Below, piece after piece: positions 2,796 to 32,190 of a stretch of 64,000 bases of DNA. The notes below the pieces were generated by a model. That model did not search any database. It saw only the letters and a list, made by a program, of their open reading frames with translations, and had not been told where the DNA came from. Within the stretch, counting starts at the first letter, position 1. Each line of letters opens with the position of its first letter. The translations under genes were made by a program, and so were the position numbers. The stretch covers positions 32,001-96,000 of the IMG/VR virus record IMGVR_UViG_3300042013_000067, one strand, 5' to 3'. This DNA comes from a virus. Taxonomy: Duplodnaviria; Caudoviricetes.

Positions 2796-3548
2796 ATGAA
2801 CCAACCCGCTCGCCCTGCACTCGACCCGAATATCCTCGACGTAATGTCTAACTGGCTCTTCACCGATCCAGTACCGGGATCTTCGAAGCGTCCAAACTTC
2901 CGCGTCAAAGTGTTGGGCAACGTCCCACGCATCTCGGTCAAGACTAACGTCGAAAACGACAAGCAGTTCGGCAAGATCGACTTCCAAACCGATCTGGCGA
3001 CCTGGGGTACTATCATCGCACTGGCCAATGACATGGCTGAAGGCCGTGATGACAGCGACGGTTACAACTGGGATTACAAGGATGACTTCCTTGCCGGTAA
3101 GAAGCTCGATCGTGAAATGGTTCTGTCCACCCTGCAAATCGGGCGTGACCGTGAATCCGGCCGTATGTACATCTCGGTGCTGTCCAGCGACAAATCCCGT
3201 CCGCGCATCCAGTTCTGGTTCGGCCCTACCAAGTACCACGACATCCGTCACCGCGACGGTAGCCCACTGTTGCCGAAGAAGCTGTCCGAGTCGTTTGCTC
3301 GCGGCTTCCTGAAGCCAATCAGTGATCTGGTCACCCACCTGCTCATCACCACTTTCAACCCTGATGCCAAGAACGTGGCCAAGGCGATGGTTCCAGGCGG
3401 TGGCGGTGGTAATAACTACCAGCAGGGTGGCCGTGGCGGTAACAACTACGGTGGCGGCAATTCGGGCGGTGGCAACAACTACGGTGGCGGCGGTCAATCT
3501 CGCCCTCCGGCTAACGATGCCGTTGACTTCGACGACTTCGTGATGTAA
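2796..3548 (+). CDS. chmC: ChmC-like nucleus-associated RNA/ssDNA-binding protein (phiKZ gp67 position)
   Basis: Directly upstream of the gp68-like and PicA-like genes as in the conserved cluster; ~200-aa folded domain plus Gly/Asn-rich disordered tail; ATG 2796 with AAGGA SD. Confidence 0.7.
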   Translation: MNQPARPALDPNILDVMSNWLFTDPVPGSSKRPNFRVKVLGNVPRISVKTNVENDKQFGKIDFQTDLATWGTIIALANDMAEGRDDSDGYNWDYKDDFLAGKKLDREMVLSTLQIGRDRESGRMYISVLSSDKSRPRIQFWFGPTKYHDIRHRDGSPLLPKKLSESFARGFLKPISDLVTHLLITTFNPDAKNVAKAMVPGGGGGNNYQQGGRGGNNYGGGNSGGGNNYGGGGQSRPPANDAVDFDDFVM

Positions 3549-26362: not shown

Positions 26363-27199
26363 TTAGAACGTTTTATATTCCGCGCGAAGGGTTTCGACAT
26401 GCCTGCCTGTTTTCAGATGGGTCTGGATGATGTCGTAGTGGTCGACCTTGACATGGATGTGGTATTTCACATCCTCTTTAAGGTCAGGCCAACTGTAAAC
26501 GGAAGTACCGTCAGAATTCTGCGACACCACTAAGTCGGCTTTGTTGGCGGTGTCCCATTCAGCTTCGATCAACTGACAGTTCAGGACGAGTGCTTTTTTC
26601 ATCTGTTCAGCACATTCCTGTATCGAGCCCCCTAGGTTAACGGTGACTGGGGCAAGTGCGTCACGTACCCCACCCAAGGTGTTTGCCATCAACATGGTGG
26701 CTTTCATGGCTTTGGCCATAGGGGGATCAATGAGCTCGTCAGGGCGGTAGCTACCGATGCCCGGTGAGTAGAACTGGATGTGGTCAATGCTGCGATTGTC
26801 ACCGCGTTGGGCGAAGGACTGTGCCTTACCCTGAATCTGGTCGAACTCTTCCTTCGTCAGGGTAACTTGACCTGCCTCGTAGTCGATCAACGCGTAGTAG
26901 CAAAGACGCGCCACCTTCCAGTAGGTGATGTCGTAGTTGTCATCGTCCTGACACGTATCGTGCCCGGTCACCAGGTTGATGTGGTGCTCACCCAGTGCGC
27001 GCTGTACGTCCTTACGCTCCTCCAACATCTCAATGACCGCCGTGAGTTCAAGGAACTCATTGCGCAGCTCCATGATGGCATTGCGGCCTTTGTACTGACT
27101 GGCCACACCGTGATGCTGACACTTGAGGGCTTCTTTGGTGACTTCGGAAGCTTCTTCAGCTAGCTTGCCCAAGAGGTACTGCGTCCAATTCATGCTCAT
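26363..27199 (-). CDS. MazG-like NTP pyrophosphohydrolase domain fused to an unknown C-terminal region
   Basis: N-terminal LGKLAEEASEVTKEALK...LRNEFLELTAVIEML fits the all-alpha NTP-PPase ExxE...ExxD/E pattern. Confidence 0.65.
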   Translation of the reverse strand: MSMNWTQYLLGKLAEEASEVTKEALKCQHHGVASQYKGRNAIMELRNEFLELTAVIEMLEERKDVQRALGEHHINLVTGHDTCQDDDNYDITYWKVARLCYYALIDYEAGQVTLTKEEFDQIQGKAQSFAQRGDNRSIDHIQFYSPGIGSYRPDELIDPPMAKAMKATMLMANTLGGVRDALAPVTVNLGGSIQECAEQMKKALVLNCQLIEAEWDTANKADLVVSQNSDGTSVYSWPDLKEDVKYHIHVKVDHYDIIQTHLKTGRHVETLRAEYKTF

Positions 27200-28028
27200 C
27201 TAACATCTCCGCTGGTCTATTGAGAAATTCGTCAATGATCGGCAGTACCCGATCGAGGTCCGTAAGAAGGAACAGGTGTCCATCGTTAAACACGTGAAAC
27301 TCACTGTTCGGTATCTGTAGAGCTAACACCTTCATGTTAGTCAGTGGTATCAACGGATCGTCGTTACCCGCTAACACCAAGGTAGGTTGCTTAAGCTTGT
27401 GCAGCCAAGGCAGACTGGACCACCAGTACACCGCCGCCACCTGATAGTAATAGCCATAACTACTGCGATGGGCATGGTTGGCTTTGTCCTCTGCCATCTT
27501 CTCAGCATGGATAGCAGCCAAGGCTTTGTCATAGCGGAACTTACCCCCGTAGATGGACGGAGCAATACTAGCCGCATACGCAGGGTCAGTATAGCGCCGT
27601 GGACTGGCCATCAGGCACAACACACGCCAACTCGGCATGAAGGAGATAATCCCCGCTGAAGTAGCTGCCAGTATCAACCGGCGGCAACGCTGAGGATAGT
27701 CGTGTGCGAACTGCTGCGCTAGGAAGCCACCCCACGACAGACCGATAACATCTACTTGACCATAATCCAAATGGTCCAGCATTTGGGTGACGATCTTGGT
27801 CAAGCCAGAGAAACGGTAGGGGAGCAGCGGGGTAGATGAACCCCCAACACCTGGAACGTCAAAGGCAATAACTTCCAAATCAGGACGCATTGCTCGGACA
27901 AAAGGTAGCACCAGCTCCAGACTGGCGCCGATACCGTTGAACATCAGAAGCGGGGTTGTCTTTTTAAGGCCAGGGCGTACTGCTACCCTGATGGTCTGCC
28001 CATTAAGATCGATTGTTTTAATATCCAC
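27156..28028 (-). CDS. phaZ: Intracellular mcl-poly(3-hydroxyalkanoate) depolymerase
   Basis: Colinear with Pseudomonas PhaZ: AVRPG..TPLL.FNGIGA.LELV.PF, EVIAFDVPGVGGSSTP..PYRF, lipase box GLSWGG, QQFAHDYP.RC, MASPRRY, LAGNDDPLIP, DGHLFL. Confidence 0.95.
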   Translation of the reverse strand: MDIKTIDLNGQTIRVAVRPGLKKTTPLLMFNGIGASLELVLPFVRAMRPDLEVIAFDVPGVGGSSTPLLPYRFSGLTKIVTQMLDHLDYGQVDVIGLSWGGFLAQQFAHDYPQRCRRLILAATSAGIISFMPSWRVLCLMASPRRYTDPAYAASIAPSIYGGKFRYDKALAAIHAEKMAEDKANHAHRSSYGYYYQVAAVYWWSSLPWLHKLKQPTLVLAGNDDPLIPLTNMKVLALQIPNSEFHVFNDGHLFLLTDLDRVLPIIDEFLNRPAEMLDEHELDAVPLGQAS

Positions 28029-28029
28029 T

Positions 28030-28479
28030 TTATGCCGTATCCTTGACGTCGAACATGCTATACGAGTCGAGCATCAGCGCTGGCTCATTGAGGAGCTCGG
28101 CTAGTGCTCGGGCTTGTGACACCGGTGTAGTTGCAAAACGATCTGAAAGCAGGTTACCTGCCCTCATAGCTATTACCCTTAGCTCTGCGAAGAGAGCTGG
28201 GTTTTCATGCACCCACCGACGCCACAGCTCCTTGTAGGCAGCATATACATCGACCGTAGGGTCGAGTGGTGGTTTTCCCTTACCAATACGCCAGTCATCA
28301 ATGCCAGGAGTACCGTAACCCTTCACGGAAAGCTGGTAGTGCTCCTCAATGGTGAACCCGTCAGAAAGACGGGCTACCATTGCTGAGAACCGACGGTCTC
28401 CTTTCGTGGAGCATTCTAAGCCGCCAAATCGCGACCACTTGAATTGTCCACTGCTGGTTGAGGACTGGCCGCTTGCTTT
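28030..28479 (-). CDS. Conserved phage domain (ECSTKGDRRFSA...TIEEHYQ family, possibly NADAR-like); N-terminal part lacks an in-frame start
   Basis: Frame open from ~28505 with no ATG/GTG/TTG until 28380; the family-like segment KWSRFGGLECSTKGDRRFSA lies upstream of that ATG, partly inside the polymerase 3' end. Confidence 0.65.
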   Translation of the reverse strand, partial: KASGQSSTSSGQFKWSRFGGLECSTKGDRRFSAMVARLSDGFTIEEHYQLSVKGYGTPGIDDWRIGKGKPPLDPTVDVYAAYKELWRRWVHENPALFAELRVIAMRAGNLLSDRFATTPVSQARALAELLNEPALMLDSYSMFDVKDTA

Positions 28480-30380
28480 TTTGCTTTGTGTGCCAAGTAG
28501 GCATCAAGCATGGTATCGAATGCTGGAGCACCCATGAGCTTCTGTGTGATCTCGACCGCGTTCACGCGACCGCCCGTTAAGTTGACCCCGAACTCACGCC
28601 GTACTGCTTCGGTGATCCCCTGAATCTGACAGAACTCCATAACGCAGGTTTCCCGTGCGATGTTGAGGATCTGCGAAACGTTCGGGTAAGTTGACACAAT
28701 GTCCAAGTCGGCTACGTGTGTAAAGATCAGCGTGAGATAATCTCGCATTTCCTCCACACAGTCCATACCCTCTGCCGCCGCCATATACGAAGGCAACGTG
28801 ACGATCCAATCGTCATGGCCAATCACGAACTTATCCAGTTCGGTGGACATCTGATCGGACGCTGTACCAATCACCGACTTGTTCGGACGGTTCAAGTACC
28901 AGAAGTGCATATCGTCGCAAAGACGTTTTGGGTTGGAGTTAAAGTTCTTGAAGTCCGAGTTCTTCGAATACATCGTAATCGACGAAGCCAGATCTTTAGT
29001 CTTCTCGTCCAGTTGCTCCAGGCGAATACTGTCGACGATGTTGTAAACACCGTAGATGATCTTGTGCTTGGTCTGCATCACTTCGTGCCAACGCAGACCG
29101 GTGTGCTGATCGGTTTCCTTGATCTTCAGTTTATCGAAGTCCAACTTCACTTCACAGACGTCACCCACCTTCACCATGTCGTGGTGGAAGTTCTCCACCA
29201 GTTCATCGTTGATGTAGTAGTAGACGAATCCACCCTTGCCACGGACCATGTCATTGGCTTTGTCGATAAATGCTTGGATATCGCCCGGCGCTTTGATCTT
29301 GGCTTCGTACTCGCTATTGAGTTCCTTCTTCAGAATCGCAGACAGGGCATACGACGGATCTTTACCGTTGGCCAGTCGAGTAATGCGATATACAGTCATC
29401 GCATCAATGCACTGGAAGGTCGCTGGATGGGTTACCCAGTTCCACCGGTCTTCCACGTTAATGGACATGACCTTACCAGAAGCCGTGGTCTTCTGTGTGT
29501 TACCCTTACGGTAGTTGAAGTACTTGTATTTCTGCGGTACCGTCGGGTCACTGAACACCGAAGCCAGATCAATACCTTCTTTCTCCAGAGCACGGATGAT
29601 TTTGCTCATGTCGAAGTCCATGTTCCAGAAAGCAAACCAATCTGGCTTCCAGACGTGGAGCATCTCGATACAACGCATGACCACTTGGCCTGGCGTATCA
29701 GCGATCAGAACTTCAATGTTCAGCTTACGTTCATCGATCAGAGACGGAATAAGTCGCTTGGCCTCAGCCAAGGTCTCAGCTACGGGGTCAGCGATATCAC
29801 CGATCCAGCTCTTCAGATAAACTAAGCGGACGTTTTCTTTGTGACTGACCGACATGCAGATAATGTCATCTGTGCCATTGACTACGTCGGTCTCAATGTC
29901 ACCACCACCGACTGTGTTAAAGCTGATGGTTTCTGGATACTTGCTGCGGTACTCAGCCTTGATGCAGCATGCGGAGTTAACGTCAGCACCGTACACGTAC
30001 GGGTTACGTTGGATAACGCGTTGTTGTGGGCGATGGCCTGGGTTAATGTCCAGGACTTTGGCGATGCTCTTAACCAAGTCGAGTTGCGTAGTCTTGAACT
30101 CTTGCAGATTGCTAACGAGTTCGTAGTCTTTCTTCTCTTCGTGGTTACGACGGCCTTTATGGGTAATCCAGAAAGGGCGTTTATAGTTCTCTTCAAACCG
30201 CAGACGGGGAATACGCCGACCGTCATCCAGGTGTACAACTTCCTTTACAATCAACATGTCGCTGAGGCCACGTTCTTGGTCAACGACATAAGTAATATGC
30301 TTTGCTTCAAAGCCTGTAGGTTTTACGATGTTGCTCACGAGATTCCCCTTCAGGTCTGTGTACGTACGATAACGTGGCAA
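28416..30380 (-). CDS. polB: Split family-B DNA polymerase, exonuclease-containing subunit (phiKZ gp82-like)
   Basis: ExoI DIETD, ExoII FWNMDFD, ExoIII YNIVD, polymerase motif A DLDIVSTYPN; motifs B and C absent, as expected for the split chimallivirus polymerase. Confidence 0.88.
   Translation of the reverse strand: MPRYRTYTDLKGNLVSNIVKPTGFEAKHITYVVDQERGLSDMLIVKEVVHLDDGRRIPRLRFEENYKRPFWITHKGRRNHEEKKDYELVSNLQEFKTTQLDLVKSIAKVLDINPGHRPQQRVIQRNPYVYGADVNSACCIKAEYRSKYPETISFNTVGGGDIETDVVNGTDDIICMSVSHKENVRLVYLKSWIGDIADPVAETLAEAKRLIPSLIDERKLNIEVLIADTPGQVVMRCIEMLHVWKPDWFAFWNMDFDMSKIIRALEKEGIDLASVFSDPTVPQKYKYFNYRKGNTQKTTASGKVMSINVEDRWNWVTHPATFQCIDAMTVYRITRLANGKDPSYALSAILKKELNSEYEAKIKAPGDIQAFIDKANDMVRGKGGFVYYYINDELVENFHHDMVKVGDVCEVKLDFDKLKIKETDQHTGLRWHEVMQTKHKIIYGVYNIVDSIRLEQLDEKTKDLASSITMYSKNSDFKNFNSNPKRLCDDMHFWYLNRPNKSVIGTASDQMSTELDKFVIGHDDWIVTLPSYMAAAEGMDCVEEMRDYLTLIFTHVADLDIVSTYPNVSQILNIARETCVMEFCQIQGITEAVRREFGVNLTGGRVNAVEITQKLMGAPAFDTMLDAYLAHKAKKQAASPQPAVDNSSGRDLAA
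28476..28482 (-). promoter_or_regulatory. Candidate -1 frameshift heptamer A-AAA-AAG with downstream stem
   Basis: In-phase GCA AAA AAG in the polymerase frame; GCGGCCA/TGGTCGC and GTCC/GGAC stems begin 3 nt downstream. Confidence 0.6.
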
Positions 30381-31750: not shown

Positions 31751-32190
31751 CCACTGCCCACCAGTTCGCCCAACAACTCAAGGCGATCGAACCGGCCAAC
31801 ACCAATATCCGTCTGGCCCGTAGCCTGACCCTGGTCCATGCTTTCGCCATGGCGGTACCGGTTGGCAACTACACCAACGCCGAACAAGCGGCCGACGCTT
31901 CCAGCGATCTGTTGAAGAAACTGATCAACGACGTCAACGAACACGTCACCCTCGACACCAAGCTGTGCATGGGGTTGCTGCTGCCTACCCTGAAGCTGCG
32001 CTTCGAACTGATGGCCGGGACTACTGACCCAGCCCTGATCAAGATGGTCCTGAACTCCGAAGCTGCGGCTGAACTCAAGGGTCCAGATGACTTGGCCATG
32101 ACCGAGTACCTGACCAGTCGTCCTGGTTATGCCAAAGAACAATTGCTCATCAGTGAATCTGTTCGCGAACTGATCGCGGACAACGCCTGA
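31747..32190 (+). CDS. Probable virion structural protein
   Basis: 147 aa, ATGA overlap with the upstream gene, strong codon bias. Confidence 0.75.
   Translation: MTTAHQFAQQLKAIEPANTNIRLARSLTLVHAFAMAVPVGNYTNAEQAADASSDLLKKLINDVNEHVTLDTKLCMGLLLPTLKLRFELMAGTTDPALIKMVLNSEAAAELKGPDDLAMTEYLTSRPGYAKEQLLISESVRELIADNA

Follow-up and report, generated by a model that had tools for sequence, protein, structure and literature searches.

In the dnaX gene of Escherichia coli, a -1 frameshift on an in-phase A_AAA_AAG heptamer allows one gene to yield two products, tau and gamma, of a replisome component. Here we describe a replisome gene with the identical heptamer in phase, found in a 64,000-nucleotide (nt) stretch of viral DNA (Duplodnaviria; Caudoviricetes; positions 32,001 to 96,000 of IMG/VR record IMGVR_UViG_3300042013_000067), referred to throughout as the window; the 283,622-bp virus record that contains it is complete, with terminal repeats. 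The gene encodes DNAP-N, a subunit of the split B-family DNA polymerase of chimalliviruses, and we think it likely that it is recoded by a -1 ribosomal frameshift to give two products. The dnaX shift leads to a near-immediate stop and a shorter product, whereas the shift at DNAP-N would add a whole enzyme domain, as shifts do in IS3-family orfAB and in viral gag-pol. Furthermore, dnaX requires an upstream Shine-Dalgarno (SD)-like element and a strong downstream hairpin, no conserved counterpart of which was found at DNAP-N. Among phages, the tail assembly chaperones G/GT and the T7 proteins 10A/10B are likewise made with a fixed, C-terminally extended minority by a conserved -1 frameshift, and there, too, the slippery sequence and type of recoding vary among relatives; those are structural or assembly proteins, however, whereas the extension here would be an enzyme on a replicative polymerase subunit. 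ADP-ribose-processing domains, NADAR or Macro, are also linked to viral polymerases in RNA-virus replicase polyproteins (PMC9503650), but these belong to animal RNA viruses and carry the domain in every polyprotein, whereas in the DNA phage the link would be conditional on recoding.

The polymerase gene lies on the minus strand at 28416..30380. Its open reading frame (ORF) of 654 amino acids (aa) starts at TTG and ends in a TAG stop at 28416-28418, and a profile search matches residues 19-636 to the phrog_3011 DNA polymerase family (E 1e-225). Homologues occur in 289 records of phages of Pseudomonas, Erwinia, Salmonella, Vibrio and other hosts, and in relatives the gene is syntenic with virion genes like gp81-84 of phiKZ; whole-length homology and conserved neighbours thus both identify it as the chimallivirus DNAP-N. 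Over the C-terminal 206 aa, the nearest cultured relative is the Pseudomonas phage Noxifer (~78% nucleotide and 91% amino-acid identity), with the phiKZ group next (~71% amino-acid identity). The phiKZ homologue, gp82, has been named DNAP-N, the exonuclease/palm subunit of the split polymerase, with gp50 and Rhc as its partners (two 2026 preprints, including bioRxiv 10.64898/2026.09.30.755723).

Close to the end of the gene the polymerase frame reads GCA AAA AAG (28484-28476), which places the proposed shift site, A_AAA_AAG, at 28476..28482 on the minus strand, in phase for a -1 slip. Past the heptamer the zero frame runs for 19 more codons before the TAG. The -1 frame, open from 28503 to 28030 on the same strand, would read KK-ASGQSSTSSG-QFKWSRFGGLECSTKGDRRFSAMVARL after a shift. 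The linker ASGQSSTSSG (28447..28476, minus strand) overlaps the dispensable zero-frame tail of the polymerase, and is followed by a domain of predicted NADAR fold (phrog_9995; 28066..28446, minus strand), recognised by profile match, AlphaFold model and fold search, and under purifying selection by the ratio of non-synonymous to synonymous substitution (dN/dS). A variable C-terminal tail closes the -1 product (28030..28065, minus strand, including the TAA stop at 28030-28032), and here the predicted local distance difference test score (pLDDT) is low past model residue 127. An original prediction, made from the letters of the window, had given the sizes of the two products correctly as 654 and 783 aa.

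The earliest ATG, GTG or TTG in the -1 frame is an ATG at 28378..28380 (minus strand), which gene callers take as a start. This codon lies past the conserved WSRFGGLECSTKGDRRFSA segment, and a product begun there would miss the conserved N-terminal third of the domain. The match of the -1 product to phrog_9995 (E 6.5e-46) begins at FKWSRF, position 2 of the 124 in the profile, and stand-alone homologues of the domain begin M-x-F-x-W-x-R-x-GG; the family N-terminus is therefore correctly placed, 19 codons upstream of the ATG. The sole SD-like sequence, AAGGAG at 28398-28403, is 17 nt upstream of the ATG, and the ATG itself is replaced by TTG in Noxifer and by TTA in the related locus L008. The in-phase heptamer, the startless frame with its late ATG, and the position of AAGGAG were all features of the original prediction, and each was confirmed.

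To place the window among its relatives, we compared 38 loci in which the polymerase C-terminus is directly followed by the domain, and sorted them into five junction types, A to E. Type A comprises the window, Noxifer (L002/L007), L008, L011-L014, L092, L093, L095 and L096, giving 11 distinct sequences with 52-98% polymerase identity. In these the domain is in the -1 frame, the heptamer A_AAA_AAG is in phase, and the polymerase continues for 5-30 codons past it, with a zero-frame tail that is not conserved. The pattern xxA AAA AAG is kept at the nucleotide level in 11/11 loci, although synonymous sites are near saturation. Across the type A alignment, 35 columns hold an invariant residue with degenerate codons, and a single codon is kept in four; two of these four are the AAA and AAG of the heptamer, while the sole other invariant lysine column is split between AAG (8) and AAA (3). 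The preceding codon (GCA, GGA, CTA or TCA) encodes alanine, glycine, leucine or serine and yet ends in A in every locus, against a background of 15% A at third positions. Conservation of the heptamer thus exceeds what the protein sequence requires. The base after it is C in 9/11 loci.

Downstream of the heptamer, the type A linker between KK and the domain ranges from ~3 to 18 residues and varies in sequence, but in every case keeps the frame and contains no stop. In type A, the stretch from where the frame opens to the domain N-terminus holds no ATG, GTG or TTG, apart from two codons far upstream in Noxifer and L096, and no close relative has a normal ATG before WSRFGG. The polymerase stop falls inside or after the conserved WxRxGG motif, and reinitiation after termination could therefore not yield a whole domain. 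Taken with the in-frame fusions described below, the comparison supports the core claim of the original prediction, that a startless downstream domain is fused to the polymerase by a dnaX-type shift.

Type B lies further from the window and uses other heptamers that are highly prone to shift. It includes phiKZ, PA7, PA1C, PhiPA3, 201phi2-1 and five metagenomic lineages, in which the domain is again in the -1 frame but behind C_CCA_AAG, with the polymerase stop immediately after it. The stop is one codon further on in 201phi2-1, and a variant locus, L034, has G_GGA_AAG TAG. The -1 frame of phiKZ and several others opens no more than one codon upstream of the heptamer, and the phiKZ junction lacks a start codon. 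The three heptamers found here (A_AAA_AAG, C_CCA_AAG, G_GGA_AAG) correspond exactly to those in the Atkins et al. review. A stop directly after the slippery site, the only obvious helper in phiKZ-type relatives, is known as the classical 'shifty stop' (Weiss et al. 1987, cited in that review).

The remaining types reach the same domain by other routes. In type C (RVTF4, D6 and eight metagenomic loci, together L004, L005, L015, L028, L030-L032, L036, L039 and L040) the domain occupies the +1 frame, and just upstream the polymerase frame carries an invariant GAA AAG AAG; the junction lies near locus position 2980-3020, or 2480-2520 in L004/L005. The polymerase stop is at a fixed place within the KRYDG codons of the domain in 10/10 loci, and the domain N-terminus has GTG, TTG, CTG, ACG or none of these as its codon, with NTG in most and GTG in 5/10. 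Judging from these sequences, expression could depend on tRNA-Lys slipping by -2 on G_AAA_AG, on a +1 slip, on reinitiation from the TGA conserved downstream or on initiation at NTG, and we favour none of these. In type D the domain is in the polymerase frame behind a lone TAG, followed by C (TAG CTA or TAG CTG), without a start codon; L017/L018 (TAG at 2992) and L043 (TAG at 2977) are candidates for stop-codon readthrough. Reassignment of TAG was considered and rejected for these loci, where long genes have no internal TAG in the limited sequence. Finally, type E (L009/L010, protein P0013) is a true in-frame fusion with no stop, so that the natural fusions sought among relatives do exist. Where selection acts on a fixed ratio of short to extended product, as for retroviral gag-pol, frameshifting, readthrough and fusion are seen to alternate at a single junction, as they do here.

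A frame break at a run of A could also reflect chance, decay or error. With 5 copies against an expectation of 5.9, the bare heptamer shows no enrichment in the window. In-phase heptamers of the form XXXAAAG are rare, with 4 in the 21,890 codons of its long ORFs; one of these is the DNAP-N site, which sits exactly where the startless conserved frame opens. The other three are CCCAAAG, TTTAAAG and GGGAAAG; the ORF-start/in-ORF offsets of these sites are 1872/506 (plus strand), 19896/1325 (plus) and 24624/1223 (minus). The domain could be a decaying remnant that has lost its start codon, or the break an assembly or sequencing error, as the missing start and the error-prone nature of homopolymer runs would allow. 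Against this, dN/dS between the window and relatives is 0.04-0.23, at a proportion of synonymous differences (pS) of 0.43-0.95, over 45 gap-free codons that include the GDxRF segment upstream of the false ATG, and 26 positions are invariant across 104 domain homologues. The domain is thus under purifying selection, including the segment upstream of the ATG at 28380, and the decayed start codon that the original prediction had kept as an alternative is excluded. A contig of independent origin, from another sample and study, spans 28356-28518 with zero indels, which excludes an assembly error; in two relatives aligned to the window the heptamer at 28476-28482 is unchanged, and the same break recurs both in the genomes of isolates, Noxifer and phiKZ among them, and in numerous independent metagenomes. 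Taken together, we regard decay or error as exceedingly improbable.

Two further explanations would not involve ribosomal slippage. The domain might be made as a separate protein, by non-canonical initiation in the linker or by reinitiation coupled to the polymerase gene, with the heptamer incidental. Stand-alone versions are common in other phages, and start codons are available at the junction in PhiPA3 (TAATG, L050), PA1C (GTGA, L006) and 201phi2-1 (GTG, L003), as well as the GTG of five of the ten +1-frame loci. The linker of the window and of its 10 closest relatives of the same junction type, however, has no ATG, GTG or TTG; that of the window also lacks CTG, ATT, ATC and ATA, and the position of the polymerase stop downstream of WxRxGG means that reinitiation would truncate the domain. 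Separate synthesis would also leave unexplained the invariant wobble bases and the presence of three heptamers of the X_XXA_AAG class at this junction in ~20 lineages, and we consider it unlikely. Transcriptional slippage (a phenomenon covered in the review PMC5009743), in which the phage or host RNA polymerase stutters on A6 and adds one A, would put the domain in frame and give an identical protein. An A-run is present in window-type loci, and the multisubunit RNA polymerases of chimalliviruses are unusual and may be prone to slip. But a run of six is below the ~8-9 or more on which bacterial polymerases slip, and in phiKZ-type loci, where the architecture is the same, only CCCAAAG or GGGAAAG is available and stuttering is implausible; this explanation strikes us as very unlikely. 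A search for RNA sequencing runs with this sequence found none. Ribosomal frameshifting on the conserved heptamer remains the reading that we prefer for the window.

The original prediction had described the appended segment as an accessory enzyme; it can now be named as a NADAR-fold domain, with catalysis as a prediction. The AlphaFold model, built with 104 homologues, has a pLDDT of 91.3 and a predicted template modelling score (pTM) of 0.85. In a Foldseek search of the PDB, the Geobacter lovleyi NADAR structure 8bat ranked first (probability 0.97, template modelling (TM) score 0.54), and an exhaustive VIA-align search of 48,161 chains returned 8bat (Z 8.7), E. coli YbiA (2b3w, Z 8.2) and a Phytophthora NADAR with ADP-ribose (8bau, Z 7.4), followed at a distance by the next chain at Z 3.5. 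AlphaFold-cluster and viral libraries gave weak matches to NADAR, DUF4326 and DUF2493 proteins, and the Swiss-Prot AlphaFold set gave partial C-terminal matches only (YeaO/DUF488-like). A PDB sequence profile search with the domain returned only spurious matches to uL3, and a protein-atlas feature search returned nothing useful. From the model, the domain very probably has the NADAR fold, and it is probably a diverged member of the NADAR superfamily.

The invariant residues of the domain include a glutamate (IEEHYQ), a lysine (VKG) and an aspartate (LSDRFA). By eye, without residue-level superposition, E34, Q38 and K42 (IEEHYQLSVK) and D102 (LLSD, where strand 99-101 ends) have an arrangement similar to that of TSEHYFQAQK and LVEH in YbiA. 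Pairing of motifs with the YbiA alignment, also by eye, sets KGDRRFSA beside yGdFSNF, DGFTIEEHYQLSVK beside DGktwpTSEHYFQAqK, and the LLSD that closes the last strand beside LVEH. T4 AdfN loses function on mutation of E36 or K43 (PMC11825919), and an aspartate in the last strand marks the DarT1-linked subfamily (BC4488; PMC11125620). The domain resembles T4 gp30.3/AdfN and the DarG1-type NADAR glycohydrolases (PMC11825919, PMC11543638, PMC11125620) in its predicted fold, with 8bat being a DarT1-associated NADAR, and, by eye, in the glutamate and lysine of an EHYxQ...K-like motif, and in the acidic residue after the last strand, an aspartate as in the BC4488 subfamily; AdfN, too, is phage-encoded. 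It differs in being smaller (~125 aa), in lying beyond the reach of Pfam NADAR and HHalign, and in being appended to a polymerase by recoding rather than free, with a predicted activity. Catalytic equivalence to NADAR enzymes is plausible from the model, and by analogy we hold the case that the domain removes ADP-ribose from DNA to be evenly balanced.

These observations suggest how the junction may work. Most ribosomes would stay in the zero frame through GCA AAA AAG and terminate 19 codons later, giving the 654-aa subunit. A fraction would slip back by one on A_AAA_AAG as lysine tRNAs re-pair on AAA AAA, then read the short linker, rich in serine and glycine, and the NADAR-fold domain of 126 residues, giving a minor 783-aa isoform; slippage itself, and its rate, we infer from the sequence. 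By analogy with DarG1, YbiA and T4 AdfN, the domain would cleave the N-glycosidic bond that joins an ADP-ribose-type adduct to a DNA base. Fusion to the polymerase would bring such an eraser to the exposed single-stranded template of the fork, and would carry it into the phage nucleus along with the polymerase. Tethering the eraser in this way makes sense because the single-stranded DNA that DarT toxins modify lies exposed at forks. More broadly, we lean on balance towards the proposition that the nucleus-forming jumbo phages of Pseudomonas, including phiKZ, make a second, hitherto unrecognised polymerase isoform in which recoding attaches a DNA de-ADP-ribosylating NADAR enzyme, as a counter-defence or repair activity tethered to the replisome, with the recoding device freely swapped. 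The devices would be a -1 shift on A_AAA_AAG, a -1 shift on C_CCA_AAG or G_GGA_AAG beside a stop, TAG readthrough, perhaps a -2 or +1 shift on GAA AAG AAG, and plain fusion.

Several observations weigh against this proposal. The 783-aa fusion is predicted by sequence comparison only, and recent structural papers on phiKZ gp82, gp50 and Rhc mention no longer isoform. With regard to the domain, neither the -1 product nor its 104 homologues have a Pfam match, and HHalign comparisons with YbiA and with a 58-sequence YbiA profile were not significant, so that the NADAR assignment is a model-based one of fold and motifs alone. With regard to the mechanism, a -1 shift cannot serve the type C clade, and independent or coupled initiation is to be reckoned with in the wider family; the start codons at the PhiPA3, PA1C and 201phi2-1 junctions indicate that separate or coupled initiation may coexist with frameshifting.

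The case for a stimulatory element is also weak. The original prediction had placed a bulged stem, GCGGCCA/TGGTCGC, downstream of the heptamer (28428..28475, minus strand). The two arms are complementary as described, but the stem is not the minimum-free-energy fold, is not above shuffled sequence and is not conserved. Downstream folds in the window were no stabler than shuffles (z -0.66 and -1.18), those of 10 relatives differed from one another (z +1.1 to -2.4) with no conserved stimulator among them, and the possible stems begin 1-3 nt past the heptamer rather than at the 5-9 nt sought for a stimulator. No SD-like element was seen upstream of the heptamer on reading the window sequence. Since no conserved stimulator was found, the efficiency of the shift may be low. 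The host is presumably a Pseudomonas, judging from the nearest phages, and a lysine tRNA with a CUU anticodon in the host would make AAG less slippery. The phage itself has just two tRNA genes, Asn(GUU) and Lys(UUU), at G000:C1 177804-177877 and 180833-180906, outside the window (locus L097). Its tRNA-Lys(UUU) decodes the codons of the heptamer, and we can only speculate that it favours slippage on AAG; a BLAST search for this tRNA in relatives returned generic tRNA similarity only.

What is new here is the combination of a known dnaX/IS3-type heptamer with a known kind of NADAR enzyme to extend a replicative polymerase, in an arrangement that is conserved in a family with a model phage. A search of the full-text literature on frameshifting in phiKZ, the Chimalliviridae and jumbo-phage polymerases found no description of it, though coverage was incomplete. 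If the proposal is true, the three-subunit chimallivirus polymerase (gp82, gp50 and Rhc) also exists in a substoichiometric form that bears an enzymatic appendage. To our knowledge, this would be the first known case of a phage replicative polymerase extended by programmed frameshifting. It would also link DNA ADP-ribosylation, as in DarT-type defence, directly to the replisome, and would prompt one to ask whether fusion acts as a means of entry to the phage nucleus.

It is only in the chimalliviruses of Pseudomonas, with 69 matching records, that the domain follows the polymerase. Elsewhere in phages it is commonly a free protein with an M-x-F-x-W start, or is fused to YAcAr-SLOG, DprA-like, DUF4326, exonuclease, and giant virion or virion-RNA-polymerase-like proteins. 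These partner types match those listed for NADAR by Aravind and colleagues (PMC9503650, PMC7824862), in keeping with the NADAR assignment. In contigs that are not from chimalliviruses, very large proteins (from over 850 to over 1000 aa) carry the domain as their C-terminus, at locus positions ~3001-3360 (L046, L047, L055, L060, L061, L072-L074, L076, L078-L080 and L085). The families that these proteins match are virion structural, virion-RNA-polymerase-like, DUF7831 or DprA-like, and this suggests that the domain in large virion-type proteins is delivered with the virion. When the phage's own genome was searched, neither a canonical NADAR nor a further copy of the domain turned up.

Most deposited genomes truncate the domain or leave it unannotated, and this holds for any mechanism. 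PHIKZ082.1 (38 aa; phiKZ NC_004629 80128-80244; L001 2750-2866) is a C-terminal fragment of the domain that begins at an internal ATG, and phrog_33573 (38 positions) was built from such fragments. Noxifer gp082 is annotated from an internal TTG, and in 16/60 of the phage records listed nothing is annotated over the domain.

Downstream of the domain in the window, a minus-strand gene at 27156-28028 encodes an alpha/beta hydrolase (Abhydrolase_1, E 2e-30; esterase/lipase by phrog), with a GTG start one base past the domain stop. It overlaps by 44 nt a MazG-like NTP pyrophosphohydrolase gene at 26363-27199, also on the minus strand; in Noxifer other genes lie between the domain and the MazG-like gene. 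The DNAP-N gene itself is interrupted at one and the same place (...SHVAD | LDLVSAYPNVSQ...) in L009 (4553-4905), L093, L095, L017 and PhiPA3 (H132, in two pieces). The insert, of ~350-400 nt or more, is most simply read as a probable group I intron; an ORF with weak HNH and faint NUMOD1 Pfam matches lies in the insert region of L093.

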